Under the pieces are notes generated by a model. It did not search any database, was not told the DNA's origin, and worked only from the letters and a program-made list of their open reading frames with translations. A stretch of DNA of 64,000 nucleotides, taken from positions 53,942-117,941 of the forward strand of contig JAFEAY010000010.1 in assembly GCA_018266175.1 (NCBI GenBank), given 5' to 3'. Positions within the stretch are counted from its first letter, which is position 1. The number at the start of each line of letters is the position of its first letter. Below, in pieces: positions 3,970 to 59,852 of the stretch. A program made the position numbers and the translations under genes. Source of the stretch: Candidatus Babelota bacterium (lineage in GTDB: Bacteria; Babelota; Babeliae; Babelales; RVW-14).

Positions 3970-3997
3970 GGCCCCCAGGAATTACAACCCGGGGGCC
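3970..3997. repeat. GC-rich 28-bp palindromic hairpin element (ggcccccagg-aattacaa-cccgggggcc) followed by ttgaaatta; copy 1
   Basis: 10-bp GC stem (one mismatch) with 8-nt loop in an AT-rich context. A near-identical copy lies at 5509..5536. Sits between convergent genes, so it may also act as a bidirectional terminator. Confidence 0.7.
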
Positions 3998-4041
3998 TTG
4001 AAATTAGAATTATTTACTCTGTTGATGAGAAAATCGCTTTC

Positions 4042-5364
4042 CTAAATCATCGATGCCGGCAGAAAAAGTATTTTATTCTTTTCATCAAATGAAAGAGGCC
4101 CCATGTAACAAAAAACACCCAGCGATGCCTGAGGTGTAGCGGCCATAAAGCTTTTCAGATTATTGAATTTTTTCGTTTCAATCTGAGAAGAATAAGTAAT
4201 TTCGAATGGAATAATTCGCCTTCCAAGCGCAACAACAAAATCAACCTCAGCTCCCCCAGCAGTTCGCCAAAAATGAATTTGATGATTTTCTGATTGAGTA
4301 TCAAGCCACGTTTGTAACTCGTTAAGAAACCAGGTTTCAAGTCGATGACCTATCAATGCGGTACTTTTCAAAACGGTAATCTCATGAATACCAGTCAAGT
4401 AACTGACCAATCCGTTGTTAATCAAATAGCCCTTTGGTGATTTCACTAACCGCTTGATAGAACTTCTGATGTAAGGAAATAATTCAGTGTATTGCAGTGT
4501 GGCAAGTAAGTAGTCTCGATATTTTGAAAGGGTAGCTCTTGAGCAATGCAAGGCATCCATAATTTTTTTATCATCTCGAACAGATCCAGTAATTTCGGCA
4601 CAAATTTTCATCAGATTTTGATACATATTTAAATCGCCGATTGAATCAATAGCGCGAATGTCTTTTTCTAAATAAGTCTGCAAATAATCACCTAAATATT
4701 TTAAGCGCAACGATTCCGTTGCTGCCGCTATGACTTCTGGAAGGCCACCCCATACCAGATGGTTGTGTAATGATTCCTGCAAAATATTTTGAAAAGGACT
4801 CATCTGTACCATAAAATCTTTCAACGCTTGCACATCTTTTTCAGAAAAAATAAGGTCAAAGACATGGTGCGGTGGTAATGAAATTCCCTCATGCAAAAAA
4901 TGTGTCGTTTCTCTGAGGTTAAACTCACGCAAATTTAAAAGCTCAACTCTACCCGCTAAAGATTCTGCAGTTAATTTATGTAAATTAAGATGCGCTGATC
5001 CAGTAAGAAGAAATTTTATAGAGTCTCTCCCTTTATGGGTATCGTATATAATCTTTATTTGATCAAATAAAGCAGGGCATTTTTGTGCTTCATCAATAAA
5101 AACCCAGAGCTTTTTTTGCCCTCCAATTTTTTGAAGTGCAGCCTGCTCAATCATCAACTCAAGCTCTTCGGCTATAACTCTGTTTCTTTGGCTGAGCACG
5201 TCCATGTTCAAGTGAACCCACTTCTTCTCAGGATTAAGGTTCATGTAATATTCAAGCAGTGTTGTTTTTCCAACACGACGGGGGCCCAAAAGGGCACTGA
5301 TGAACGGCCGCTCAAACGACTCAAAAAGGAAGGCTTCATTAGCTCTTACAATGTATTTCTTCAT
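4042..5364 (-). CDS. AAA+ ATPase of the DUF4143/COG1373 type
   Basis: Walker A LLGPRRVGKTTLLEYY near the N-terminus, and DEAQ Walker B. Overall similarity to the 52595..53755 paralog. Start moved to the internal Met (MKKYIVRANEAF). Confidence 0.75.
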   Translation of the reverse strand: MKKYIVRANEAFLFESFERPFISALLGPRRVGKTTLLEYYMNLNPEKKWVHLNMDVLSQRNRVIAEELELMIEQAALQKIGGQKKLWVFIDEAQKCPALFDQIKIIYDTHKGRDSIKFLLTGSAHLNLHKLTAESLAGRVELLNLREFNLRETTHFLHEGISLPPHHVFDLIFSEKDVQALKDFMVQMSPFQNILQESLHNHLVWGGLPEVIAAATESLRLKYLGDYLQTYLEKDIRAIDSIGDLNMYQNLMKICAEITGSVRDDKKIMDALHCSRATLSKYRDYLLATLQYTELFPYIRSSIKRLVKSPKGYLINNGLVSYLTGIHEITVLKSTALIGHRLETWFLNELQTWLDTQSENHQIHFWRTAGGAEVDFVVALGRRIIPFEITYSSQIETKKFNNLKSFMAATPQASLGVFCYMGPLSFDEKNKILFLPASMI

Positions 5365-5508: not shown

Positions 5509-5536
5509 GGCCCCCGGGTTGTAATTCCCGGGGGCC
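5509..5536. repeat. GC-rich palindromic hairpin element (ggcccccggg-ttgtaatt-cccgggggcc) flanked by TGAAATT direct repeats; copy 2
   Basis: Perfect 10-bp stem. The loop is the reverse complement of copy 1. Flanks: aaTGAAATT|hairpin|tTGAAATTa. Confidence 0.7.
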
Positions 5537-5555
5537 TTGAAATTAAAAACGTTTA

Positions 5556-7637
5556 TTATTTTTGTTTATCGAGTTCTTCTTTTAGATGATCCATGAGCGT
5601 CTTTTTAAAACCCATTTTAAGGCTATTTTTATGCTGATCATAAAATTCTTGGGCTTCTTCTTTAGCATTGTTATCAGCACGTGCAATAACTCTAAAATAA
5701 TTTTTTAAAATATTAGTATTCGAAGGATTACTAGAATCTGCGGCATAAGTTTTATGAGAAGCAGGATCAATTATAGTAAGCCGGTTTTCTCCTACCGGCA
5801 AGATAATTTGATGATCTTTAATTAATAGAAGACATCTCATAAGCTCTGCTACAACTTTAAGCTCATTAGTTTGCTGTATTCTTATGAACATATTCTGCAA
5901 TGTAGGTCCACTTGCAAGAATATTTCTGACAATCTTATCAGTATAACCTAGAAGCTCATTGAGCGATTTGTTAGAACGTAATTCGTTCGCATTAATATAC
6001 TGTAAAAGCCATCCAAGGTAATCAATAAATTTAAATGCTCTTACTCTTGCATCAGAATGCTTAGAAGCAGCATCAATAATGTCTTGATTACTATCTATCG
6101 CTGCAATCAACTTTATAACTTCAAGTAAGCCATTCAACTCAATCGATTGTTTTTCAACTACTTTAACTTCATCCTTAATTTCACTAATAGATTCATTAAA
6201 TAATCGATCCTCTTCTTCCTCACGTCGACGTTCATCTTCCTTACGAAGATTTTCTTCTTCTTCTTCTTTACGTTGACGACGTTCTTCTTCTTCTCGCTGA
6301 AAACGCTCTTGTGCTTCTTTTCGATCTTTTTCTTCAAGAGCAGCTAATCTTTTTTTCTCTTCTTCTAGGCGAATACGCTCTTTTTCTTCTAGCTGAAAAC
6401 GCTGTTCTTCTCGTTCACGTTGTTCATTCTCACGTCGCTTACGATCTTCTTCGTCACGCTGACGACGCACTTCTTTTTCATGACGCTTCTTAATACGAAT
6501 TACTTCTTGTTCGAGCCCTATTATCTCATCCATTAAAAATCGTGCATATAATGTTGCAAGAACTTCTGCTCGAACTTGTTGCCCTGTTAAACTATAACCC
6601 CTACCTAGATTTGCTTCAGTGAAAAAAACTTGATAGCTTACCCCATCTATAATTAATTCTTTTGCAGATTGCTTATCAGAAGGAATTGGCACAGCAGCTT
6701 CTCCTGGAAACCGTATTTTTTTACTGTTGGTATAATCTCTGCAAGCAAGCAAAATATTAGTTAAAGCATTTTGAGATGTGATTAAAGGCATTCTAAATTG
6801 CGTATGGCTCAATCCATTGAGAAGGTAATAAAGTGCCCCATCAAGCGAAGGCTGATATTGATTTTTAACTCCATGTCCTTGTCCGATATACCAGAGAATA
6901 GCTGTTGCAGCCCACCATAAAAAGTTTGGCTCGTAAAATCCATTTTCAAGAAGCGAAAATGCAAGGCGTGAGCCAGGACTTCTCCATCCAATTTTTGGAA
7001 GAATAGCTTTTAAAATTTCAGCATCTTGTTTTTGCCCATTTTCTATACAAGACTTTAAAACATCTGTATAAGACCTTATCGTATCCACTCCCACATCACT
7101 TGTGTCGTCAGAAATCCAACTAACAGCATGATGATAAGAATGTTGGTCTGCCAAAGATCTTTGCACTTTAAGAATTTTTGCATGGCTATACTTCTCAAGC
7201 AGGCTATTCACAAGCTTCTCACAAGCACTTTTAATCACCTGAATTGCTTGTTCAATATTTTGAGCATCAATATTTCTTAATGCATCTCGGTTATGACCAT
7301 CAATAAGAGAACTTCTAAATACTTTAACCTCGTTGACTAGATCAGCATCTTGCTGGGAAATATCATGCTCAAGAGTATTAAGTATTTCATTTACTTTTTG
7401 ACTAAAATTTCGATAATCAATTTTGGGTTCAATTTTTATCTCTTCAATCTCAACAGCATCACCGCGTAGATGCTGTGAAATAGCCTCAAGCCCATTCTTC
7501 AAGGCTTCAAGCTTAGCCCTCAACTGAACAAGGTTTTGATGCAATCCTTGAATGCGGTCGCTCAACTCATCAGCCGCCAGTGAGCATACCAAGCTCATGG
7601 TTATTGCCATTAAAAATATTTTACCATACTGCTTCAT
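5556..7637 (-). CDS. Secreted protein with an N-terminal conserved leucine-heptad module and a central E/R/K-rich charged single alpha-helix region
   Basis: Signal peptide MKQYGKIFLMAITMSLVCSLAA. Motif LHQNLVQLRAKLEALKNGL is shared with the 7686..9872 protein. ~110 aa of RRQRDEEDRKRRENEQREREEQ... residues. AGAGGAG ribosome-binding site upstream. Confidence 0.6.
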   Translation of the reverse strand: MKQYGKIFLMAITMSLVCSLAADELSDRIQGLHQNLVQLRAKLEALKNGLEAISQHLRGDAVEIEEIKIEPKIDYRNFSQKVNEILNTLEHDISQQDADLVNEVKVFRSSLIDGHNRDALRNIDAQNIEQAIQVIKSACEKLVNSLLEKYSHAKILKVQRSLADQHSYHHAVSWISDDTSDVGVDTIRSYTDVLKSCIENGQKQDAEILKAILPKIGWRSPGSRLAFSLLENGFYEPNFLWWAATAILWYIGQGHGVKNQYQPSLDGALYYLLNGLSHTQFRMPLITSQNALTNILLACRDYTNSKKIRFPGEAAVPIPSDKQSAKELIIDGVSYQVFFTEANLGRGYSLTGQQVRAEVLATLYARFLMDEIIGLEQEVIRIKKRHEKEVRRQRDEEDRKRRENEQREREEQRFQLEEKERIRLEEEKKRLAALEEKDRKEAQERFQREEEERRQRKEEEEENLRKEDERRREEEEDRLFNESISEIKDEVKVVEKQSIELNGLLEVIKLIAAIDSNQDIIDAASKHSDARVRAFKFIDYLGWLLQYINANELRSNKSLNELLGYTDKIVRNILASGPTLQNMFIRIQQTNELKVVAELMRCLLLIKDHQIILPVGENRLTIIDPASHKTYAADSSNPSNTNILKNYFRVIARADNNAKEEAQEFYDQHKNSLKMGFKKTLMDHLKEELDKQK

Positions 7638-27669: not shown

Positions 27670-28538
27670 ACCGCAATCTCAAATTTAATAGTTGGATGAC
27701 TTACGTAGTTTATGACTTGTGAATTTTGATACGACCAATCAAAAATAGAAGAAAATGGTTCAGTAATAATTTGAGGAAGCGGATAAAGTAATGGATTGCG
27801 TTCAAGCTGCAGGCGTGCACCATCGATATGATTGACATAAATATGCACATCAGCCAAAAAGCCAATCAATTTACCTTCTTTCAAGCCCACTTCTTTTGCA
27901 AGCAGGTGAAGGAGCAAGGCGTAGCTTGCAATATTAAATGGCAAGCCAAGCATGACATCAACGGAGCGCTGGTTCCATAATAAATTGAGATAACCATTGC
28001 TAACCGTTACCTGAAAAGCATAATGGCATGGAGGCAACGCCATCTCAGATAAGTCCATTGGATTCCACGCTGAAACAATCATTCGACGATCAAGCGGATT
28101 AGTTTTGAGCGTCTGCACAAGTGCTTTCAGCTGATCACAACCTTGATTGGTGTAATCGGCATCAAAAGAACTATACTGGGCCCCAAAGTGCCGCCACTGA
28201 AAACCATAGATTGCGCCCAAATCTTGCTCTTCAAGCATCTGTTTTTTAGCCTGTTCGCTGTGGCCATAAGGTGCTTTTTTGGGATACGCCCACTCATCCC
28301 AAATATGATTATTCTGCTCTTGTAACCATCTTTTGTTCGTAATCCCTTTAATAAAAAATTCAAGCTCAGAAGCAACAAGCCTGAAGGGGACTTTTTTGGT
28401 CGTCAAAAGCGGAAAACCATCGGCCATGTCATGTTCAAACATCCGCCCAACCACGGCAATCGCATCGGTTGCCGTTCTGTTTTTTTTGAGTACGCCATGC
28501 TCAAGAATGTGGCGTACAATATCCAAATATGCTTTCAT
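27666..28538 (-). CDS. thyA: Thymidylate synthase (ThyA type)
   Basis: MKAYLDIVRHILEHG...RTATDAIAVVGRMFEHD...FPLLTTKKV. 4-nt overlap with folA. Confidence 0.95.
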   Translation of the reverse strand: MKAYLDIVRHILEHGVLKKNRTATDAIAVVGRMFEHDMADGFPLLTTKKVPFRLVASELEFFIKGITNKRWLQEQNNHIWDEWAYPKKAPYGHSEQAKKQMLEEQDLGAIYGFQWRHFGAQYSSFDADYTNQGCDQLKALVQTLKTNPLDRRMIVSAWNPMDLSEMALPPCHYAFQVTVSNGYLNLLWNQRSVDVMLGLPFNIASYALLLHLLAKEVGLKEGKLIGFLADVHIYVNHIDGARLQLERNPLLYPLPQIITEPFSSIFDWSYQNSQVINYVSHPTIKFEIAV

Positions 28539-28652
28539 GGGTTAATTTCTTTCAAGCAACAAATAAAGATAATTTTTCCCAAATAATATCAAGATTGGCT
28601 CAACAGTACCATAAAAAATAAACATCCCAAAAGTATGGGGTACCAATCCTCA

Positions 28653-28856
28653 TTAATGATGCTTTTTATTTTTAAAATATCGCTTCACCCAGAGCCAACT
28701 CTTCTTCCCCCAACGTACAGCAGGTTTGCACCCCAATAACCCAAGACCTATAACAATCAAAGCAACTCCGGGAATGATGGGAAAAAAGAGCCCGAATATC
28801 CCTGTAATTAGACAAATTAAACCCAAAAGTTTGTATAAAAAACTTTCTAAAATCAT
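28653..28856 (-). CDS. Small two-TM membrane protein (PGPGW-like); start uncertain
   Basis: LGLICLITGIFGLFFPIIPGVALIVIGLGLLG. The first 75 codons of the longer ORF overlap tRNA-Gln and its promoter, so the start was moved to an internal Met. Confidence 0.4.
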   Translation of the reverse strand: MILESFLYKLLGLICLITGIFGLFFPIIPGVALIVIGLGLLGCKPAVRWGKKSWLWVKRYFKNKKHH

Positions 28857-28909
28857 TCCGAAAGAATGAAAAAATGCCACAATAAACCCTCCTGTACGTT
28901 CTTTTGATC

Positions 28910-28937
28910 TTGCAAAAAATATGGTTTTTGCTATAAA
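28910..28937 (+). promoter_or_regulatory. Candidate promoter for tRNA-Gln: TTGCAA, 16-nt spacer, TATAAA
   Basis: Located 26 nt upstream of the tRNA 5' end. Confidence 0.4.
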
Positions 28938-28963
28938 TAACGGTATCAAATTAATGCATGTAA

Positions 28964-29037
28964 TGGGAAGTCGTCTAGCGGCAGGACCCTGGATTCTGGA
29001 TCCAGTTACATAGGTTCGAATCCTATCTTCCCAGCCA
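28964..29037 (+). tRNA. tRNA-Gln (anticodon CUG), U1-A72 pair, G73 discriminator, CCA encoded
   Basis: TGGGAAG acceptor paired with CTTCCCA. Anticodon arm CTGGA-TTCTGGA-TCCAG. T-arm TAGGTTCGAATCCTA. Confidence 0.8.
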
Positions 29038-29112
29038 TCCGCCGTCGCCCTTTGGGCTATGGCGCGATGTCTCGTCATAGCTTGCCAAGCCGGAAGGCGT
29101 GGATAAGCGTAG
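29035..29112. repeat. Element immediately 3' of tRNA-Gln, homologous to the element 3' of tRNA-Gly; contains a 10-bp hairpin
   Basis: Hairpin GGCTATGGCG-CGATGTCT-CGTCATAGCT. See 17816..17951. Confidence 0.6.
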
Positions 29113-29134
29113 ACGGACAGCTTTCGCTTCCAAT

Positions 29135-29587
29135 TTATTTTTTTCTTTTTATACGCTGAATCATTTCTTCAAATACTTGTAAAAAACGAGATCGATCTTT
29201 TGGGGAAAAAGTAGCGTTATAACTCGGACCTTCACCCGTTTCACGCAAATGAGCACGTAACTCGCGTATCGCTTTTGCTACACCAATATTATCATCATTA
29301 AAAACTCTGCCTGTTGAACTTATTGCACTTGCTCCATTTTTCAGGCAGCGCTCAGCAAGCAATATGTCTATGGTGATTACAATATCCCCCGCTCCAGCAT
29401 GTTCCACAATCCAATCATCTGCAGCATCGGCGTCAGAGCCAACCACTATTTTATGAACGTTTATATCAACCGGCATATTCAAGCGACTGTTGCTTACCAA
29501 GTAGACCTGTATGTTGTGGCGCGTGGCCACTCGAAAAATTTCTTCTTTTACCGGACACGCATCGGCATCTACGTATATGTCTAACAT
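29135..29587 (-). CDS. yaiI: YaiI/YqgE-type UPF0178 (DUF188) protein
   Basis: MLDIYVDADACPVKEEI...GDIVITIDILLAERCLKNGA. Confidence 0.8.
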   Translation of the reverse strand: MLDIYVDADACPVKEEIFRVATRHNIQVYLVSNSRLNMPVDINVHKIVVGSDADAADDWIVEHAGAGDIVITIDILLAERCLKNGASAISSTGRVFNDDNIGVAKAIRELRAHLRETGEGPSYNATFSPKDRSRFLQVFEEMIQRIKRKK

Positions 29588-29634
29588 TCCCAACCTGATT
29601 AATTTCTTTTGTTGCGTTAAAAATTCTATTTCAT
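29582..29634. repeat. 53-bp perfect direct repeat, copy 1 (yaiI 5' region)
   Basis: taacattcccaacctgattaatttcttttgttgcgttaaaaattctatttcat; identical to 30378..30430. Confidence 0.9.
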
Positions 29635-29656
29635 ATTTTAAATCAAGTCTTGCTTA

Positions 29657-30055
29657 TCAAGAAGGAATACGAACGAGCTTCATCAAAATATTTAAAACCT
29701 TTCCCGCTGCAGTTATCGCATCAAGAGCCTCGCTTTGATCGATAGAAAATTGATCATCAGGATAACGAGTACGCATCTCGTAAGGACTTAGATAATCGAT
29801 ATATTTTTCAAGTACCATTAAATGCTGATCATACTTTTTGCACTCTTCTAAGAGTCCTTCTAAGTCATGAGTTTTTGGAATTTTTTGATGTTGATACACC
29901 AAAAACGCTTTTAATGCTTTCTCTGCACACTGATGAGCATGATAAGCTACTATACCCAATATTTCATTATCATTCTCTTCATCACCGGCAACTAGCTTCT
30001 GCGCTGCCCTTAAATCACCTCGTGCTTTTATAATCCAATCTCTATGCCCTGGCAT
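29657..30055 (-). CDS. hepT: HEPN-domain protein (toxin component of an MNT-HEPN module)
   Basis: IVAYHAHQCAEKALKAFLV HEPN signature. Overlaps the upstream NTase gene by 14 nt. Confidence 0.8.
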   Translation of the reverse strand: MPGHRDWIIKARGDLRAAQKLVAGDEENDNEILGIVAYHAHQCAEKALKAFLVYQHQKIPKTHDLEGLLEECKKYDQHLMVLEKYIDYLSPYEMRTRYPDDQFSIDQSEALDAITAAGKVLNILMKLVRIPS

Positions 30056-30383
30056 ATAAGCACTTTCCTTCTTTGTTTACATAATAGGGAAGCGTTGCAA
30101 TCTCATTAATGCGTTCTGCAAATTCATCTTTGGTATATACTGCTAAGTCTTTGTATATCCCCAAACCTCGTAACGCTGCATAACCAGCTCTTACTCTTGC
30201 ATGACTTCTCTCTTCGGAGCTCTCAACGACTACAAGAAGATCAAGGTCACTATCTTCGCGTTGATCTCCACGGGCATAAGAACCAAAAAGATATATCTCT
30301 AGCGGATCATAGGTACGTACTAAACGCCTTACTACTTCTTCAATAATTTCCGGTGTAATCATACTATCCTCACAGCGTAACAT
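30042..30383 (-). CDS. mntA: Minimal nucleotidyltransferase (MNT), antitoxin/AMPylase partner of the HEPN protein
   Basis: LFGSYARGDQREDSDLDLLVVV nucleotidyltransferase motif (GS-x9-13-DxD). Confidence 0.8.
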   Translation of the reverse strand: MLRCEDSMITPEIIEEVVRRLVRTYDPLEIYLFGSYARGDQREDSDLDLLVVVESSEERSHARVRAGYAALRGLGIYKDLAVYTKDEFAERINEIATLPYYVNKEGKCLYARA

Positions 30384-30430
30384 TCCCAACCTGATTAATT
30401 TCTTTTGTTGCGTTAAAAATTCTATTTCAT
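30378..30430. repeat. 53-bp perfect direct repeat, copy 2 (mntA 5' region)
   Basis: Identical to 29582..29634, including the first codons (TTG-GGA-ATG-TTA). Confidence 0.9.
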
Positions 30431-30498
30431 GCGCATCAATACTGTATAATGAAAGTGTATCGTTTTACATAAATTTTTGAATAAAATTAGATTTTCTT

Positions 30499-31035
30499 AT
30501 GTGCTCACAAAACAACACGCTCTTAAGCAACATTCATCCCGACCTACTTGCAGCCCAAGCACTTGTATATGAACCAAGCGGGCTGACTTGTACATTAATA
30601 GACCAAGAAATAGAAAGTAAAGAGTATGGCGCGTGTAATCTGAAAATAAATAACTCCAGCGTTAAATTTCGCGTAGGCAAAATTACACCAACAAAGATTG
30701 GTCAATTTGTTACGTTATGGAAGCGAATTGGTAATGGACCAATTCAACCTTACGACATAGCAGACCCTGTTGATTTATTTGTTGTTAGTGTTCGCAATAC
30801 TGACCACTTCGGTCAATTTGTTTTTCCAAAAATCGTGTTGTACCAAAAAGGCGTTATATCAAAAGATTGCATAGGCGGAAAGCGAGCAATGCGAGTCTAT
30901 CCACCGTGGGATAAAGTTGATAATCAACAGGCAGAAAAAACTCAGCATTGGCAACTTTTCTACTTTTTTGAAATTCATCCAGGCGAGGTTGATACTGCTC
31001 GTATCCAGAAATTATACCCTATAAAATCGTTATAA
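30499..31035 (+). CDS. MepB-like family protein (DUF1093), function unknown
   Basis: GQFVTLWKR, GKRAMRVYPPWD and TQHWQLFYFF resemble MepB-family conserved blocks. This is from memory and was not searched. Confidence 0.45.
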   Translation: MCSQNNTLLSNIHPDLLAAQALVYEPSGLTCTLIDQEIESKEYGACNLKINNSSVKFRVGKITPTKIGQFVTLWKRIGNGPIQPYDIADPVDLFVVSVRNTDHFGQFVFPKIVLYQKGVISKDCIGGKRAMRVYPPWDKVDNQQAEKTQHWQLFYFFEIHPGEVDTARIQKLYPIKSL

Positions 31036-31069
31036 AATCTGCAATTCTTAAACAAACTCACGTCAACAC

Positions 31070-31867
31070 TTATTGGGTAGTTGTAACATCAATTCCAATA
31101 CCTTGTGCATACTCAATTTGTTCTGTTATTAATTCAAGCAAACTTCGATTATCGACCGGGGTCGCATTTACAGAATGATCATGAGCATTCAACTGAATGG
31201 TTGGCAATTCAAACCCAATATTTATTGCATGCTCAATTTGCTGCTCTAGTTCGTTTTGCAATCTGGTATTAAGCAAATATTCTCCGCGAAGAATCGTCCA
31301 TGGTTGACCGCTCTTAGATTGCCCTTGAACAGATAAACTTTCTTGATTTAAACTTGATGAAACTTGTGTTGATTCTGCAGAATTTTGCTGAGTATTATTA
31401 AGATTTTCATGGTGTGATAATGCTGCACCACCAGATTTTTTTACATTGCCCTGAGTTTCTTGAGAAGGAAAAAAGCCATTCCATTTGAGCATATTACCAA
31501 GCTGGTATACCAAATAAAACAAACCTATCGCCACACCCGCTGCAAGGGCAATTTGCCCTACAAAAAGATAATTACTCCACCGGGCTTCAGCATTTTTTTG
31601 CCTATAAAATTCTTCTGATTCTTTACTGCCCATCATAATATTTATGATATCGCTCCGTGAATATCGTTCATTCAAAAGGTCATAAATTTTAACACCAAGC
31701 TCATGAACTTTCTCAGGATCTTCATGACTGCAATTCAGGCTTGCGATAATTTCAGCAACTACATGTGTATATTCATCAACGCTCTGTGCAGACAGGGTTG
31801 AATTATCAGCCGTAACAATAAAATACGTCAAAGAAAGAAGGAGATATTTTTTAAGATATACTTTCAT
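31070..31867 (-). CDS. Secreted/membrane hypothetical protein
   Basis: Signal peptide MKVYLKKYLLLSLTYFIVTA. One TM helix (IALAAGVAIGLFYLVYQL). Start chosen to avoid overlap with the upstream gene. Confidence 0.45.
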   Translation of the reverse strand: MKVYLKKYLLLSLTYFIVTADNSTLSAQSVDEYTHVVAEIIASLNCSHEDPEKVHELGVKIYDLLNERYSRSDIINIMMGSKESEEFYRQKNAEARWSNYLFVGQIALAAGVAIGLFYLVYQLGNMLKWNGFFPSQETQGNVKKSGGAALSHHENLNNTQQNSAESTQVSSSLNQESLSVQGQSKSGQPWTILRGEYLLNTRLQNELEQQIEHAINIGFELPTIQLNAHDHSVNATPVDNRSLLELITEQIEYAQGIGIDVTTTQ

Positions 31868-31878
31868 TTTATTACCCT

Positions 31879-33501
31879 TCATGCAGCTATGCGAGCCAAA
31901 TCTCTGGCCCACTGAACTCGTACTTTTTCCCACAGCTCTGCCTGCTGTAAACTTTTCATTGCTTGATCAAGTGCAGTTTGCGCAATTTCACCCGTAAGCT
32001 GCTTAGGCTCCTGTCGGCGAGCTTGCACAACCATTTCTTGCGCAATAAATTTAATCGCTCGTGGGCAAACACCTTCAAGAAGGTCCGCATAGATTGAAAG
32101 ATTTTCTAAGACATCTTGATGCAGGTCAACAACTGCTTCACTATTTTCTTGTGCAAATTTTTCAAGGTATGATGCAAGAATTTTTTCTCGCTCCGCCTTT
32201 TCTGGCAACGTAAACTCAATATTCATACCAATGCGATCTATAATTGCATCATCAAGTTTAAAGGGATGATTGGTTGCAAAAATAAACATTAAGTTTTTTT
32301 GTGATTTTTCCGGAACGAGTGCCAGAAATGTATTAATAAAATCTTGAATGCCTTGGGATGTTGTAGGAAGCTTTCGATTTGCAAACAATGATTCAGCTTC
32401 ATCAATAAAGACGATCAACCCTTTTTCTGAATTTTTTGCCCAATCTAAAAGCTTGCGGAATTCACTATTTGCAAGATTTAGATCGGTAATTTTTGCAAAT
32501 TCTGAACCAGAGGTTAATGCATAGTCAATATCTAAATAATAGGCCAGCTCCTTGGCAAATGCAGTTTTTCCCGTTCCTGAAGCACCAAAAAAAAGAACAT
32601 TGGGGAGATTTTCGTTATACATTTTTGCAAATTGTACGCGCAGTACAAGATCAAAAAGTTGCTTATGCAATTCTGGAGTAAAAATTAAATCCTTAAGACA
32701 ACTCACGCGCGGGGGCTTACTCCATCCAAACCAACCCTTTTTTGAGGTTTCACTGATGACCTTTGGTTGTGTAAAATAATTCATTACCAGAGGAATACCA
32801 TACTGAGCAGCATAGACACCTAAAGCAATTGCTGTTACGGCAATAACAATTTTTATTATACGCTTTGGACTATCTATCATCTTTTGAATTGTATTCCATT
32901 TTATTTTTTCAACATCTGTAGCAGCTTGAGCCTTAATCTTTTCTTCTTGCTCAAAAATACCCAACCGCTGTTTTTCATGAATCTCTGCTCTTTGAAGTTG
33001 AATTCTGGTTTCACGATCAAACTCATTATGAATCCGTGCATCGTTTGCCCGTACAGCTTCATTTCGTATAACCTCTTGAGCTAAAGCATCTTTTAGACGA
33101 TTAAATTCAGTTTCCAAAGTTGCCGTCGCAGTCTGTGCATACTGTCTCATTTGTGCATGCAACTCTCGAGATTCCTCAATTTGAGTTGCTACTTGATTTG
33201 CTTGCGCCAATGCCTGAGTTGATACCTGAAACGCTTCAATTGATTTATCATTTGAGTGATGAGCAAGTGCAATAGACTGATTTAATCTTACAATGCCATT
33301 ATTAACAACCTCACGAAGGTAATTTGCTCGTTGCGTTACAGCTTCCACTTGCTGGAGAGCTTCGCCTACAGTTGTTGCTTGTCCTCGAACTTGAGACCTC
33401 TGAGGCTGCATTGATATAAGAGGTAATACATTAAAAAGATTGATGATCAAAAATAGATAAAATTGGTTTTTTTTCATCATGAACATCACTCCCCCCCACA
33501 A
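31879..33501 (-). CDS. ATAD3-like membrane-anchored AAA+ ATPase (coiled coil, TM helix, AAA domain)
   Basis: Blocks NVLFFGASGTGKTAFAKELAYYLDIDYALTSGSEFA, GLIVFIDEAESLF and NLMFIFATNHPFKLDDAIIDRIGMNIEFTLPEKAEREKIL align well with eukaryotic ATAD3 ([20 protein letters not shown]..., GLLLFVDEADAF, NQPEQFDWAINDRI...FDLPGQEERERL). N-terminal coiled coil plus TM as in ATAD3. Confidence 0.8.
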   Translation of the reverse strand: MWGGVMFMMKKNQFYLFLIINLFNVLPLISMQPQRSQVRGQATTVGEALQQVEAVTQRANYLREVVNNGIVRLNQSIALAHHSNDKSIEAFQVSTQALAQANQVATQIEESRELHAQMRQYAQTATATLETEFNRLKDALAQEVIRNEAVRANDARIHNEFDRETRIQLQRAEIHEKQRLGIFEQEEKIKAQAATDVEKIKWNTIQKMIDSPKRIIKIVIAVTAIALGVYAAQYGIPLVMNYFTQPKVISETSKKGWFGWSKPPRVSCLKDLIFTPELHKQLFDLVLRVQFAKMYNENLPNVLFFGASGTGKTAFAKELAYYLDIDYALTSGSEFAKITDLNLANSEFRKLLDWAKNSEKGLIVFIDEAESLFANRKLPTTSQGIQDFINTFLALVPEKSQKNLMFIFATNHPFKLDDAIIDRIGMNIEFTLPEKAEREKILASYLEKFAQENSEAVVDLHQDVLENLSIYADLLEGVCPRAIKFIAQEMVVQARRQEPKQLTGEIAQTALDQAMKSLQQAELWEKVRVQWARDLARIAA

Positions 33502-33700
33502 CTATAAAAACAAAATAGAAATTCATTATGATTATTATATTTAAAAAAATAAACTTATTGCAATTAATTAGATATCGTATTCAATAAAACTTTATATAAA
33601 AAAAGGCAACCTCTAGTTTTTTTCAGATTTATTCATTACTTTTGTTCCTAGAGATAGAAAAACAGCCAAAATATAACTATGTTAAAGGAGCTCTAGAGCC

Positions 33701-33904
33701 ATGGCTTATACCGTTAAATCCAAAAAAAGTGGAAAAATGTACTCTTTACATTCAAAAGAAGTAAAGCTTGCTGGCGATCGTAAACAAAGAATTTATTACT
33801 TTGCAGGCGAAGCTGGACCAGATGCACTTGATACATTGCCTGCTGGATATGAAGTTATAGAAAATGCGCGCACAGGCTTGCCTATGTTGCGTAAAAAGAA
33901 ATAA
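33701..33904 (+). CDS. Small hypothetical protein (67 aa)
   Basis: AAAGGAG ribosome-binding site 11 nt upstream of the ATG. No recognisable family. Confidence 0.4.
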   Translation: MAYTVKSKKSGKMYSLHSKEVKLAGDRKQRIYYFAGEAGPDALDTLPAGYEVIENARTGLPMLRKKK

Positions 33905-34103
33905 CAGTTCCACATTGCGATAAGCAAAATTAAATAAGGGCTCGGTACATTGTTACCGGGCCTTTATTATTTTATAGAAACATACTCACTCAACAGGTTT
34001 TTTTCCACGCTATTTCATAAACTCACCCCTCTATTTTCTTGAACTCACCTCAGTACAACCTCTCCTTATTGCTCAAAATTCCCAATTTTGTCGATATTGA
34101 TTA

Positions 34104-34119
34104 TTTTTGTCGACAAAAA
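34104..34119. promoter_or_regulatory. Candidate GntR-family operator: perfect 16-bp palindrome TTTTTGTCGACAAAAA with two flanking TTGTCG half-sites spaced about 20 bp apart
   Basis: Lies 56 to 71 bp upstream of the GntR gene start. Fits the GT-Nx-AC core of GntR/FadR operators. Confidence 0.5.
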
Positions 34120-34174
34120 TATAATTTGTCGCTAATATGGGTTTAGAATAAGAATTTTAAAGAAAGGGCTTTCT

Positions 34175-34879
34175 ATGAACACTGCATGTATAAAAAAGAC
34201 ACTTATAACGACAGAAAAAGACAATACGCTGGCTTTACAGTGCTATGAGCAGCTCCAAGAAGATATCATCAATGGTACCTTTGCTCCGGGGCAAAAGCTC
34301 AAGATAGAACTCCTCAAGCAGCGACTTGATGTTGGCCAAAGCCCCATTCGAGAAGCATTGTCTCGCTTGGTTGCTTCAGGCCTAGTCGAGACACAAGACA
34401 ATAAAGGTTTTCGGGTTGCTCAAGTTTCTGAAGCAAATATTCGTGATATCTATCGCACCTTCTTCCAGATTGAGCTTTTAGCACTTAACCAAGCAATGGA
34501 ACTGGGCGATGATGCATGGGAGGCATCAGTTGCCGCGGCGCTGCATCACCTGGCACTGGTTGAAACCAGGCAAGAACCGGTATCGTACCAAGTCTGGGCT
34601 CAGCGGAATTATGCCTTTCACGTCGCGCTGATATCGGGTTGCAATTCTCCTCTTTTGCTTCAGATTCGAGCCAATGTCTATCACCGTTTTGATCGGTACT
34701 GCCGCATCGCATTTAACCTTTCTAATACACAACTGCATCTCAATCACGATGAGCATAAAAAACTTGCTGATGCTGTCCTTGAAAGAAATACAAAAAAAGT
34801 ACATGAGCTCTTGGAGTACCACATTTTTGGAGCATTAGAAGATGTTATTGCAACCCTTCAAAAAAATAACTTGTTATAA
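34175..34879 (+). CDS. GntR-family transcriptional regulator (FadR/FCD subfamily)
   Basis: N-terminal wHTH ...LDVGQSPIREALSRLVASGLVETQDNKGFRV. All-alpha C-terminal FCD-like domain. Confidence 0.85.
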   Translation: MNTACIKKTLITTEKDNTLALQCYEQLQEDIINGTFAPGQKLKIELLKQRLDVGQSPIREALSRLVASGLVETQDNKGFRVAQVSEANIRDIYRTFFQIELLALNQAMELGDDAWEASVAAALHHLALVETRQEPVSYQVWAQRNYAFHVALISGCNSPLLLQIRANVYHRFDRYCRIAFNLSNTQLHLNHDEHKKLADAVLERNTKKVHELLEYHIFGALEDVIATLQKNNLL

Positions 34880-34903
34880 AAATAATTCTTACAAAGGATA
34901 ATC

Positions 34904-36676
34904 ATGAAAACAAAGAGACCATTAAAACAGTTAATGCATTATATGCTGCGCCATAAGGGCTCATTGCTGTTAGCTGTCTTGAGTTCAATACTCAATAAAT
35001 TATGTGACATTGTTCCGGAAATTTTAATCGGTATCGCTATTGATGTCATCGTCAACCAACAACACTCAACGGTTGCACGTCTTACAAATATACAAGATCC
35101 ATACATGCAATTATATCTCGTTGCAGGGCTCACCGCACTGCTTTGGATTGGCGAATCAATATTTGAATATTGCTACCTCATTCTCTGGAAAAACCTTGCA
35201 CATACTATTCAACACACCTTGCGTTTAAGCACCTATGCACACATGCAACAGTTGGATACCGCTTATTTTGAAAACAAAACCACAGGGGGTTTACTTTCCA
35301 TCATCAATGATGACATCAATCAGTTGGAACTTTTTCTCAGTGAAGGCCCCAATGCCATCATTCAACTTGTTGTTAACATCATTATCATGGGTGGAATCTT
35401 TACGTACATCTCGCCCATGCTTGCGGTGCTGACGCTACTCCCGGTGCCGTTTGTCATCATGATCGCTTATTATTTTCAAAACCGTTTGGCAACCCTGTAT
35501 GGGGCGGTACGCGAGCGCGTTGAAGCACTAGGAAGCCATATAGCAAGCAGACTCATCGGCATTACCACCATCAAGAGTTATACTTGCGAACAATACGAAA
35601 TTGATTGCTTAGCTCAAGAAAGTTTAGCGTATAAACAAGAAAGCCAACGTGCAAGCCATGTTAACGCTGCTTACATCCCAATAGTTCGTATGGGTATTTT
35701 GTGTGGATTTATTATGAGCATGATCGCAGGCGGAATTTTGGCACTCAATGGAACACTGCCTATCAGCTTTTATGCGGTATTGGTTTTTTTAACGCAGCGT
35801 TTTTTATGGCCATTCACCACATTGACCACCATAACCGATATGTACGAACGTGCTATGGCATCGGCACGTCGTGTTTTTACTATTTTGGCTCAGCACTCCA
35901 AGATTATTGATGGCAAGCAAAGCTTGGAGCTGGGTAAAGTTAAGGGCGCTTTGACGTTTAACAATGTCTCTTTTGCCTACAACAATGGAGTAAGTATTTT
36001 TAAAAATCTATCGTTCACTATTGCGGCCAACAGTACTGTTGCATTTGTCGGCTCTACGGGCTCAGGCAAAAGCACCATCATTAAATTGATTTTACGATTC
36101 TACGACAGCATGCAAGGCTCAATTTCTCTTGATGACACCGACATCAAGACCTTACAAACATCCGCACTTCGCCAAGCTATTGCGCTGGTAAGCCAGGAGG
36201 TCTATTTAGTTAATGGCACAATTGCTGACAACATTGCATATGGAAGCACCAATGCATCACGCCAAGAGATTATACATGCAGCGCAACTAGCTCAAGCGGA
36301 TAACTTTATTACACAGTTACCACACGGGTATGATGCTTTGGTTGGTGAAAATGGAAAAAATCTTTCTGGAGGGCAACGACAAAGAATTTCTATTGCTCGA
36401 GCTATCCTTAAAAATCCACCTATTTTTATTTTCGATGAAGCAACATCAGCACTTGATAACGAAACAGAAGCGATCGTTCAACGCTCTATGACAACACTTG
36501 CACAAAATCACACAATGGTTATTATTGCTCACCGATTATCAACCGTACGTCATGCTGATACCATTTTTGTTATGGAAAAAGGGGCAATTGTTGAATCTGG
36601 AAACCATGATGAACTCATCATAAAAAACGGTGTCTATGCTGGATTGTGGAAAATTCAAACAGGAGAGCTTTCTTAA
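34904..36676 (+). CDS. ABC exporter, fused permease and ATP-binding protein (MsbA-like)
   Basis: Six TM helices. GSTGSGKST Walker A, LSGGQRQRISIARA signature and IFDEATSALD Walker B. Confidence 0.9.
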   Translation: MKTKRPLKQLMHYMLRHKGSLLLAVLSSILNKLCDIVPEILIGIAIDVIVNQQHSTVARLTNIQDPYMQLYLVAGLTALLWIGESIFEYCYLILWKNLAHTIQHTLRLSTYAHMQQLDTAYFENKTTGGLLSIINDDINQLELFLSEGPNAIIQLVVNIIIMGGIFTYISPMLAVLTLLPVPFVIMIAYYFQNRLATLYGAVRERVEALGSHIASRLIGITTIKSYTCEQYEIDCLAQESLAYKQESQRASHVNAAYIPIVRMGILCGFIMSMIAGGILALNGTLPISFYAVLVFLTQRFLWPFTTLTTITDMYERAMASARRVFTILAQHSKIIDGKQSLELGKVKGALTFNNVSFAYNNGVSIFKNLSFTIAANSTVAFVGSTGSGKSTIIKLILRFYDSMQGSISLDDTDIKTLQTSALRQAIALVSQEVYLVNGTIADNIAYGSTNASRQEIIHAAQLAQADNFITQLPHGYDALVGENGKNLSGGQRQRISIARAILKNPPIFIFDEATSALDNETEAIVQRSMTTLAQNHTMVIIAHRLSTVRHADTIFVMEKGAIVESGNHDELIIKNGVYAGLWKIQTGELS

Positions 36677-58122: not shown

Positions 58123-58722
58123 TTATGGTGTTTCTATCTTTTTCAAAAGCACGTAAGCTTCTTTAACTTTTTTCTCACGCTCAATCTTCCAACTCACGGT
58201 AATCTCAGGTCGTGAAGCATTCGGGTTTGCAGCTACAAAGCGCTGAATAAAACTCAAGTAGGCCCATTCTTGCTTGGGGCATATTGTATTCGCTTTTCGT
58301 GCTTCTTCCCAAAAATCTGCAAATTCTTGATACGTTGGTGGTTTACCCTCAAGCCATCGCGCCCTGATCCAATCGTGCCCAACCGCAGTAAAGTGGAAGT
58401 GCTCGCCAATGAACTTTTTAAAAAAGAGACGTGTCGCCAAGTCGTTTTTATGACTGCCGTATAAAATCAAGCTTTCTGGTTTGAGCAACACAACTTGATG
58501 CTTTTTTGCTCGAGAAATGTCGGGGATTACAGGCTCCGCTAAAATTTTTCCAGTTTCTATAAAATGCATAATTCGGGCAATAATGGCAGCTTTCATACCC
58601 GCATGAGGAAGCTTGAGAGCTAAACAGACATGTTTAAGCTCAGCCATGCTCATGTAATGCTGCGCATCATTAAGAGCTTGTTGATCATGCTTGCTTAAAA
58701 GTGGAAACTTTTTCATTATCAA
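58123..58722 (-). CDS. SAP-domain-containing hypothetical protein
   Basis: N-terminal MSMAELKHVCLALKLPHAGMKAAIIARIMHF fits the SAP bihelical motif. The rest is uncharacterised. Confidence 0.5.
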   Translation of the reverse strand: MIMKKFPLLSKHDQQALNDAQHYMSMAELKHVCLALKLPHAGMKAAIIARIMHFIETGKILAEPVIPDISRAKKHQVVLLKPESLILYGSHKNDLATRLFFKKFIGEHFHFTAVGHDWIRARWLEGKPPTYQEFADFWEEARKANTICPKQEWAYLSFIQRFVAANPNASRPEITVSWKIEREKKVKEAYVLLKKIETP

Positions 58723-59117
58723 ATACTCAGTGTATTTTCAACTTTTTGAAGAGCTTGTTCTAAGATAGGATAATACAGTTTAATGTGTGCATAAATTTCA
58801 TCTGCAAGGTTTTCATCATAAGTATGCGACGTCAAGTTTCGGTCTCTTAACATTTTAAGCCACATCTTGTCATCGTCGATGAGCCCACCAGCATACGCTT
58901 CCTGCAAAACATCTTTAGGATATCTTACCTCAACACCTTTTGCTTCTAAAATGCGTTTTAACAGTTTCCAGAAAAGCTCAATCGTAAATTCAAATCGTTG
59001 AATCGATGCATCAATATTTCCTCGATCTTCATCCATGGGCTTACGGACCATGACACCAAGTGCTTGTAGGGCTTTTTTTGCCTGTTGCAAAGATTGTTCT
59101 ATGCGACTGTCTCTCAT
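58719..59117 (-). CDS. Nucleotidyltransferase substrate-binding protein, HI0074 family (HEPN fold)
   Basis: FEFTIELFWKLLKRILEAKGV...RDRNLTSHTYDE. 4-nt overlap with the upstream NTase gene. Confidence 0.8.
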   Translation of the reverse strand: MRDSRIEQSLQQAKKALQALGVMVRKPMDEDRGNIDASIQRFEFTIELFWKLLKRILEAKGVEVRYPKDVLQEAYAGGLIDDDKMWLKMLRDRNLTSHTYDENLADEIYAHIKLYYPILEQALQKVENTLSI

Positions 59118-59440
59118 TTTTTTTCCTTTTGATAAAGAATCACCCCATCAGAAACTATAGACTTTTTCAATGGATTATTATCGGCAAGTCGATCAAACCT
59201 CACGCAATCAATTTTAAGCAAAGTATCCGCCTTATCAACAAGATCAAGTACTAAATACCAATCATCATCGCTTGCTTGAGGACAGACAACTGCAAGGTCT
59301 ATATCAGATCTATTCTTATGATCTCCACGAGCTCGAGAGCCATAAAGATAAATTATTTCGATAAACGGAAGCTTAGTTAAATCTTTAAAAAATTGTAACG
59401 ATCTAATTTCTTCTTGATAAGAGGTCATACTATTCCTCAA
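59114..59440 (-). CDS. Minimal nucleotidyltransferase, HI0073-like
   Basis: LYGSRARGDHKNRSDIDLAVV nucleotidyltransferase motif. Confidence 0.8.
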   Translation of the reverse strand: MRNSMTSYQEEIRSLQFFKDLTKLPFIEIIYLYGSRARGDHKNRSDIDLAVVCPQASDDDWYLVLDLVDKADTLLKIDCVRFDRLADNNPLKKSIVSDGVILYQKEKK

Positions 59441-59852
59441 TAATCTCAGGATATTTCTGAGGTTGCGCTAAACAATATTCAACACCAAAACTTCCCTCTG
59501 GATGTTCCGCTTTTTCAACAAAGATACGATTTGAAAAACCACCCCGCTCATTGTATCTTTTCGCCTGAGCATGGGCTATCTGTTCAGACGTAATGCCATG
59601 CAAAATACAAAGAGCTTCAACAACATCAAGGACATCGGCAAGCTCTGCAATAAGCTCCTCACCAGATTGTGCTTCAACCACTTCTTGGGCTTCTTCTACT
59701 AACTTAAGCTGAAGCTGTTGGCTGTACTGGGCATCGTCAAGTCGTCTCCAATGCATAACAGAGCCATGTTTCTCCATCTTTTCAACCGCTTTATCGCGCC
59801 ATAACTTATTTTGATAAAATGTTCGCATTTTCATGAGATAATCCTTATTCAT
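59430..59852 (-). CDS. MazG-like all-alpha nucleoside triphosphate pyrophosphohydrolase
   Basis: LVEEAQEVVEA...EELIAELADVLDVVEAL (EExxE...ExxxD metal-binding pattern). Confidence 0.7.
   Translation of the reverse strand: MNKDYLMKMRTFYQNKLWRDKAVEKMEKHGSVMHWRRLDDAQYSQQLQLKLVEEAQEVVEAQSGEELIAELADVLDVVEALCILHGITSEQIAHAQAKRYNERGGFSNRIFVEKAEHPEGSFGVEYCLAQPQKYPEIIEE

Follow-up and report, generated by a model that had tools for sequence, protein, structure and literature searches.

A duplicated yaiI leader flanks an MNT-HEPN gene pair in a Candidatus Babelota bacterium

Introduction

Integrative elements, such as the islands at the 3' ends of tRNA genes, are bounded by attL and attR repeats and carry a replacement copy of the end of their target gene, and the target duplications generated by transposases are far shorter than 53 bp. 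We describe a 53-bp direct repeat around a two-gene cassette, a minimal nucleotidyltransferase (MNT) gene followed by a HEPN gene, placed beside the host gene yaiI in 64,000 nucleotides of an uncultured Candidatus Babelota bacterium of the Babeliales, Dependentiae (assembly GCA_018266175.1, contig JAFEAY010000010.1, positions 53,942 to 117,941; the whole of this stretch is called the window). Among the systems most similar to this pair, adenylylation catalysed by the MNT protein has a precedent for HepT toxins of the DUF86 type only (PMC7641770). Homology-facilitated illegitimate recombination (HFIR) is an established process, as defined in PMC3240628, and has been invoked for the displacement of modules at type VI secretion system (T6SS) and Rhs loci (PMC5361080). 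What is described here is a genuine recombination scar of an ordinary sort and does not amount to a novel type of mobile element.

Results

The repeat and the layout of the locus

The 53-mer TAACATTCCCAACCTGATTAATTTCTTTTGTTGCGTTAAAAATTCTATTTCAT occurs in two exact copies, at 29582-29634 (copy 1) and 30378-30430 (copy 2), and an exact search returned both with no mismatch between them, in agreement with the first-pass annotation of this DNA. The copies are 796 bp apart, and the bases flanking them differ on either side, which sets the length of the repeat at exactly 53 bp. A third copy with up to three mismatches is absent from the window (100 shuffles likewise gave no matches), each half of the 53-mer searched alone returned the same two sites and no others, and the 53-mer is the sole exact direct repeat of at least 30 nt in the 64 kb. 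On the minus strand the 3' end of either copy reads TTG-GGA-ATG-TTA, so that both encode (TTG)-G-M-L, as had been annotated. From 5' to 3' on this strand the locus consists of intergenic sequence, copy 2, the 15 nt CGCTGTGAGGATAGT, the MNT gene, the HEPN gene, a 22-nt spacer, copy 1 and yaiI, and 3' of yaiI stand, in order, a small open reading frame (ORF), a tRNA-Gln gene, thyA and folA. The features are listed below along the minus strand; handles of the form L097 denote contigs used for comparison, the closer relatives among them gathered through YaiI homologues and their contigs.

30499..31035, plus strand: MepB-like gene (Pfam MepB-like, 3.9e-49), a conserved divergent neighbour by which the locus is recognised in relatives
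30431..30498, no strand: rest of the native divergent MepB-yaiI intergenic sequence (68 nt), collinear with L097 and L088
30378..30430, minus strand: upstream repeat copy (copy 2), exact, the yaiI leader in its native place, running on from the MepB-yaiI intergenic sequence; holds a -10-like TAGAAT (30419-30424), a 5' untranslated region (5'UTR), an AGG ribosome-binding site (RBS) and yaiI codons 1-2, ATG TTA (30383-30378)
30363..30377, minus strand: left junction segment CGCTGTGAGGATAGT, made of CGC and TGTGAGGATAGT, the cassette's own Shine-Dalgarno (SD) region
30042..30362, minus strand: MNT gene, 106 aa (NTP_transf_2, E=1.7e-15; Polbeta, 2e-11)
29657..30055, minus strand: HEPN gene, 132 aa, of the PF05168 type (Pfam HEPN, E=1.4e-24)
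29635..29656, minus strand: 22-nt spacer from the HEPN stop to copy 1, inside the 801-bp alignment with L104
29582..29634, minus strand: yaiI-proximal repeat copy (copy 1), which gives yaiI its -10-like box, 5'UTR, RBS and codons 1-2
29135..29587, minus strand: yaiI (DUF188/UPF0178), 150 aa, intact (Pfam DUF188, E=2.9e-40)

Empty sites in close relatives

Relatives that lack the pair reveal what the repeat is made of. In L085-87 (YaiI 89% identical) and L097 (87%), MepB and yaiI are direct divergent neighbours with one leader between them, so that a single leader copy stands directly upstream of yaiI, as the first-pass annotation had predicted for genomes without the pair. A BLAST comparison of L097 with the window gives two segments, one ending at 30378, the last base of copy 2, and the other starting inside copy 1; the two overlap by 39 bp on the single L097 leader, and the window aligns collinearly with L097 once 796 bp are taken out. 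Copy 1 is homologous to the single leader of L097, L085, L088 and L104, and the 3' end of the repeat (AGGTT..AATGTTA / AGGTTnnnAATGTTA) corresponds to the yaiI RBS and start that are conserved in distant Babeliales. The earlier view of the repeat as duplicated native yaiI 5' sequence bracketing an inserted MNT-HEPN pair is borne out, since the single L097 leader aligns to both copies. MepB adjoins yaiI in L085-87 and L097, and it borders inserts in L088, L092 and L103.

The ancestral state shown by these relatives is one of MepB and yaiI facing away from each other, about 112-150 bp apart, with a single yaiI leader. The present state is intergenic sequence, leader, ATG TTA, CGC with the cassette's own SD, MNT, HEPN, 22-nt spacer, leader and yaiI. 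A 743-bp segment, comprising the SD, both genes and the spacer, was inserted right after codon 2 of yaiI with duplication of a 53-bp target: native sequence is unbroken from MepB to the ATGTTA at the end of copy 2 and picks up again with the first base of copy 1. Judged by the alignments, the 22-nt spacer appears to travel with the cassette and not to be native intergenic sequence. A derivation of the spacer from native upstream DNA, under which the duplication would once have been longer than 53 bp, was set aside: by eye we saw no convincing similarity, without a formal test. When the HEPN 3' end was aligned with native sequence in MAFFT, the match proved spurious, as that C-terminus is conserved in the unlinked cassette of L093. 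Two wider scans yielded no additional empty sites or strains: a metagenome scan with the leader (TTAATCAGGTTGKGAATGTTA) gave one match, a chance hit to L096, an unrelated non-Dependentiae contig, and in a genome scan with YaiI the nearest species representatives were only 73-76% identical and without shared synteny, and hence useless as empty sites.

Independent assemblies and strains

The exact YaiI and HEPN proteins are found on three contigs. JGI contig L001 (3300056999), 99.8% identical to the window, has both 53-mer copies exact, and the Logan assembly L002, from an unrelated run (DRR350542) and at 97.5% identity, agrees with the window in the 796-bp spacing and in the junctions. Copy 1 is identical in L001 and L002, and the upstream copy of L002 differs from its downstream copy at 4 of the 53 positions. 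That the duplication is an assembly artefact, a false duplication or a chimeric join at a short repeat, has a negligible probability in our judgement. The one point in favour of such an artefact is that every sequence comes from metagenome assembly; against it stand the architecture common to three assemblies from different pipelines (window, JGI 3300056999, Logan DRR350542) and the length of a normal sequencing read, which exceeds 53 bp. L002 moreover represents a different strain (97.5%), and since this independent assembly carries two non-identical copies, differing at four positions, the duplication was not made by assembly.

At the joint, L002 diverges from the window by about 7% on the left, including copy 2, and shows 2 differences in 2246 bp on the right. 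The simplest explanation of this mosaic is a later homologous import of the left block, ending where homology ends. Over window positions 28140-36055, stretches with 0 differences between L002 and the window alternate with blocks of 7-13% divergence, and one of the boundaries falls exactly at the left joint of the cassette. This mosaic divergence indicates frequent homologous recombination in the Babeliales population.

The cassette in a sister species

The contigs L103/L104 and L098, which come from one sample, and the empty-site contig L097 belong to one species, with 97.2-97.5% identity on both flanks. Cassette-bearing and empty alleles thus coexist within one species (L103/L098 versus L097). 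L103/L104 carry an orthologous cassette between MepB and yaiI: L104 aligns with the window continuously over 801 bp at 84.5% nucleotide identity, from -12 of the MNT ATG through HEPN, spacer and leader into yaiI, and on this alignment the right-hand junction is the same in both. On the left side L103/L104 keep 37 nt of native DNA next to MepB, followed by 316 nt of unrelated sequence that replaces 43 bp of native sequence. No second leader copy, even a degenerate one, was found in L103/L104, where local alignments scored no better than shuffles. The non-coding block of about 316 nt upstream of the cassette (L103 5685-6000, L104 2456-2768) has no match in the fetched loci or the window, and may hold the cassette's own promoter. 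Ahead of GAGGAT, L104 and the unlinked L101 are both A-rich and the window reads CGC, which suggests that a secondary joint truncated this sequence in the window lineage.

Between the window and the sister species, synonymous divergence (dS) is 0.44 for MNT and 0.63 for yaiI, and that of HEPN against its L104 orthologue is 0.74; the ratios of non-synonymous to synonymous divergence (dN/dS) are 0.076, 0.10 and 0.155, respectively. By these values the cassette is functional, and its linkage to yaiI is about as old as the split between the species: the synonymous divergence of the cassette (0.44-0.74) is on a par with the 0.63 of yaiI. The leaders of the two species differ by about 16%, yet the window copies are 100% identical.

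The first-pass annotation had taken the repeat as the signature of a recent insertion and had named, as evidence to the contrary, relatives with the pair and without the repeat. The age part of that claim is not supported: the sister species has the orthologous cassette at the same right junction, and the cassette dS is as large as that of yaiI. It also has the pair without the upstream repeat copy, exactly the contrary observation named. The duplication is therefore not an obligatory by-product of the arrival of the cassette, and belongs to a lineage-specific left junction.

Genes and domains

YaiI matches the Pfam DUF188 profile over its full length (1-130/130, 137.4 bits) and NCBIfam PRK00124 with 170 bits against a cut-off of 139. 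Its true start is best placed at the ATG at 29587, because the gene calls of 150 aa, the conserved N-terminus M-L-x-I-Y-V-D-A-D-A and the conserved AGGTTnnnAATGTTA context in relatives agree on it. MNT scores 57.6 bits against Pfam NTP_transf_2 (gathering cut-off 21) and contains the GSx10DxD motif (GSYARGDQREDSDLD, residues 27-41). Homologues are abundant in Dependentiae, and because nearly all of them among the matches listed are 106 aa long, the native MNT start is MITPE..., 15 nt past the repeat and preceded by its own GAGGA. An alternative in-frame start, the yaiI-derived ATG at 30383, gives a form of 113 aa: the left junction segment maintains the frame between this ATG and MNT (ORF 30042..30389, the 113-aa JGI call), and the gene calls of JGI and Logan accordingly have 113 aa where that of NCBI has 106. 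The statement that yaiI and the nucleotidyltransferase gene have identical 5' regions consequently stands in part: leader and ATG-TTA are duplicated, but the native MNT start lies 15 nt beyond the repeat and there is no simple shared start.

MNT precedes HEPN on one strand and overlaps it by 14 nt at the MNT 3' end, an order that recurs in L093 and L103/L104, and HEPN scores 86.9 bits against Pfam PF05168 (cut-off 22). In a motif scan its 132 aa contain no R.{4,6}H; an RTRYPD (Rx4D) and a THDL histidine are present, and a D-for-H variant is listed for PF05168 in PMC3710099. The match of MNT to the NCBIfam MntA_antitoxin equivalog covers residues 17-52 only and reaches 38.5 bits, under the cut-off of 60, and a comparison of HEPN with PDB sequences found no relative. 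The annotation as an MNT-HEPN pair is upheld by both domains above their Pfam cut-offs, the gene order, the overlap and GSx10DxD; the narrower label mntA-hepT is not, given the missing Rx4-6H and the score under the MntA cut-off. The pair probably works like the adenylylation-controlled HepT/MntA systems (PMC7641770), and its membership among HepT/MntA toxin-antitoxin systems is a prediction, not an established assignment.

Promoter and expression

A consensus scan finds a sole promoter-like match on the yaiI strand, TATACA-18-TAGAAT at 30448..30419, with the -10 inside copy 2 and the -35 (30448-30443) outside it; copy 1 has the -10 and no acceptable -35. The region has 4 promoter-like matches against a shuffle mean of 5.3, which is not above expectation and makes them weak evidence. 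A -10-like TAnnnT is kept in every allele (TAGAAT, TAGCGT, TAGAGT, TAAAAT), and the plus strand upstream of MepB has a perfect TATAAT (30445-30450) and a TTTACA-18-TAGATT match. No terminator-like site was found in the scan after HEPN and before yaiI. The two genes had been presumed to have identical promoters; this is true of the -10-like TAGAAT, the 5'UTR, the RBS and two codons, which are duplicated, but the -35 region lies outside the repeat and the promoter-like match occurs at the upstream copy only. Since yaiI has lost its -35 and no terminator follows HEPN, MNT, HEPN and yaiI probably form an operon under the original yaiI promoter, with yaiI co-transcribed as the third gene. Copy 1 likely serves in the main to preserve the RBS and start of yaiI, and MNT can, by prediction, be made as 106 aa from its own SD or as 113 aa from the in-frame yaiI ATG. 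A riboswitch or structured leader was ruled out by null results: folding z-scores of the leader are about 0, with no significant secondary structure, and an Rfam scan returned only tRNA-Gln and a sub-threshold snoRNA chance match, the leader matching no family.

Cassette copies and other cargos

Unlinked copies of the cassette in relatives show no DNA homology beyond SD and coding sequences, with 77-84% identity in L093 and L095. In L101 the MNT DNA is 85% identical over 329 bp at another locus, HEPN is lost, and the YaiI of that genome is only 76% identical. Homology at the left edge begins at -12 (L104) and -10 (L101) relative to the MNT ATG. No direct repeats were found around the other cassette copies or around other cargos at the MepB-yaiI locus. 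With homology limited to SD and coding sequences and no flanking direct repeats, the cassette moves as a bare unit, without a site of its own. Among the called genes within +/-6 kb none has an integrase, transposase or recombinase Pfam match, a scan of viral contigs with HEPN gave no relatives and so no sign of a phage vector, and the window contains no donor paralogue except a distant second MNT at 59114-59440.

Some copies of the same cassette family are orphan MNT genes (L101 2111-2479; L100; L102; L094 5001-5334). In L101, other sequence takes the place of HEPN from just past its start and MNT is extended by 16 aa at the C-terminus, and in L094 only a 26-nt HEPN remnant is left; with MNT genes persisting in the absence of HEPN, the putative antitoxin gene outlives its partner. 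At the position before yaiI, L088 has a 370-aa gene without a Pfam match (4247-5359), and L099 (1-198) a decayed remnant of that gene with a stop three codons after the ATG, which indicates that cargo is gained and lost there.

Other features of the window

A second, unrelated MNT/HEPN pair lies on the minus strand at 58123-59852, where an MNT-like gene (59114-59440) and an NTase_sub_bind/HepT-like gene with a canonical Rx4H motif, RDRNLTSH (58719-59117), make up a string of four overlapping genes together with those for a MazG-like pyrophosphohydrolase (59430-59852) and an SAP-domain protein (58123-58722). No flanking repeat of at least 30 nt was found around it. A 54-nt repeat at 3970-4023 and 5509-5562, 74% identical, starts with a GC-rich palindrome (GGCCCCCnGG...CCCGGGGGCC) in a genome of 39% GC, and could be a terminator or a small repeat-element family. 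Next to yaiI, a 141-aa 'PGPGW' ORF called by JGI (28653-29078, minus strand) overlaps tRNA-Gln(CTG) (28964-29037, plus strand); its annotated start is probably too far upstream, because a weak Pfam match covers residues 81-132 only.

Discussion

We lean towards regarding the repeat as a target duplication from non-site-specific recombination at the 5' end of yaiI, with a history of two steps. In the first, the cassette and its spacer would already have come to abut the leader at its left edge (ATGAAATAG), directly before the -10-like box. At a later point the window lineage would have seen such a cassette-bearing allele recombine with an empty one by HFIR, with a homologous crossover on the right, in leader and yaiI or further downstream, and an illegitimate joint on the left, just after codon 2 of the recipient's yaiI. 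The incoming piece would bring its own leader, and with the joint 53 bp downstream of the old junction the leader would come to be present twice; the left edge of the repeat would therefore coincide with the old junction, and the left junction would be lineage-specific. The pattern expected of HFIR is what the alleles display, a right junction common to L104 and a left junction that is lineage-specific and without homology. The right edge of the repeat, the ATGTTA/CGC joint, is seen only in the window lineage (window and L002), L103/L104 having 316 nt of unrelated sequence there, and both allele types that HFIR needs are documented within one species (L097 and L103). Several points weigh against this two-step history. 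No donor allele with another left junction was found in the window species, and without the donor sequence microhomology at the illegitimate joint cannot be shown; the order of events is derived from two lineages only; the argument from 5 nt of AAAAA versus CGC is weak in an AT-rich genome; the promoter and operon statements rest on consensus scans only; gene conversion of an old duplication would equally account for two exactly identical copies; Dependentiae are not known to take up DNA. HFIR is, in addition, rare where it has been measured (PMC5361080).

The principal competitor, to which we give a distinctly smaller though appreciable chance, is a single-step duplicative insertion in the common ancestor of window and sister species that created both junctions at once, a cassette fragment being taken up where a break had left ends staggered by 53 nt, or copied in by replication template switching. 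Gene conversion would then keep the window copies identical, L097 would have arisen through recombination between the repeats, and L103/L104 through a later exchange of the left part. An event of that age fits the right junction common to both species and a cassette divergence like that of yaiI, precise excision between 53-bp repeats would restore exactly the native site of L097, and L002, with its 4/53 difference, shows that the copies need not be identical. The same scheme has to reconcile the leader divergence of about 16% between species with identical window copies, which needs concerted evolution of a 53-bp repeat, and L104 shows no trace of an upstream copy and has A-rich cassette-type sequence where the window has CGC; to our knowledge, no bacterial enzyme cuts with a 53-bp stagger. 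It is improbable, to a much greater degree, that the edge of the yaiI leader is an attachment-like site served by a recombinase encoded elsewhere, with the repeats as attL/attR and an integron-like capture platform. In its broader form, for which we see very little chance, the yaiI promoter edge between -35 and -10 would be a dedicated capture site in this Babeliales clade, where promoterless cargos are inserted time and again and expressed from the host promoter. The attraction of the idea lies in the yaiI-side junctions of different cargos, which fall within about 15 bp of one point shortly before the -10-like box. These cargos are MNT-HEPN (window and L104), the 370-aa gene in L088 with its remnant in L099, and as a third cargo a deacetylase gene between MepB and yaiI in L092, whose exact junction is unmapped. 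Were it true, the 53-bp repeat would be the only case with both attachment-site copies still visible, and an unrecognised recombination activity would be handling MNT-HEPN, the 370-aa gene and a polysaccharide deacetylase. Yet flanking repeats are missing from L104 and L088, the cargo of L092 points the other way, and the copies in L093, L094 and L101 lie at unrelated sites without repeats or shared flank, their homology stopping at the coding sequences. No recombinase is called within +/-6 kb, the site recurs nowhere else in the 64 kb and the leader has no significant secondary structure, and selection suffices as an explanation, because only about 18 bp between the MepB promoter elements and the yaiI -10 tolerate insertion. 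The marks of site-specific or integron-type capture are thus missing, with no recombinase nearby, no site travelling with the cargo, and a repeat that is native yaiI sequence.

The locus provides a clean and fully bracketed case of a bare two-gene conflict module settling beside a host gene in a reduced, host-dependent bacterium without visible mobile machinery. A series is available of an empty site, a site occupied with duplication, one occupied without duplication, and other cargos in the same spot. The module would take over the host promoter, 5'UTR and start codon, and the duplicated leader leaves the host gene translatable; the direct repeats could also make precise loss of the cassette by recombination between them possible. 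For annotation, the case is of use in that gene callers split on the MNT start (106 versus 113 aa) because a start codon has been duplicated. What is known of MNT-HEPN systems and of recombination is unchanged, and the locus adds population-genomic detail and no new mechanism.

Comparison with known systems

With transposon target-site duplications the locus shares a direct duplication of the target that borders the insert, but the insert holds only MNT and HEPN, without a transposase and with no terminal inverted repeats reported, and its other copies have no duplications. Like attL/attR elements, it has direct repeats of tens of bp flanking an insert, one of which restores the interrupted gene. 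Unlike them, it has no integrase, its insert measures only 743 bp, the 5' end of a protein gene is the part duplicated, and relatives have the same cargo at the same site without a second repeat.

In gene content the cassette resembles MNT-HEPN modules and the HepT-MntA type VII systems (Shewanella SO_3165/3166, PMC7641770; PMC3710099) by its small MNT gene upstream of and overlapping a small HEPN gene, by GSx10DxD, by the purifying selection on both genes (here omega 0.08-0.16) and by its mobile and patchy distribution. It departs from the characterised HepT/MntA systems, which use HepT of the DUF86 type, in that its HEPN is a PF05168 'HEPN-T' with Rx4D.

In its manner of arrival the locus recalls the displacement of modules by HFIR at V. 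cholerae T6SS effector-immunity loci and Rhs orphan arrays (PMC5361080). The anchor in those systems is a conserved toxin N-terminus, whereas here it is the housekeeping-type yaiI with its leader; one round is seen here, and the process is deduced from three alleles. As at the T6SS and Rhs loci, one junction is conserved and homologous and the other lineage-specific, a conflict module stands beside a conserved host gene of which a piece is duplicated, and alleles with and without the module coexist.

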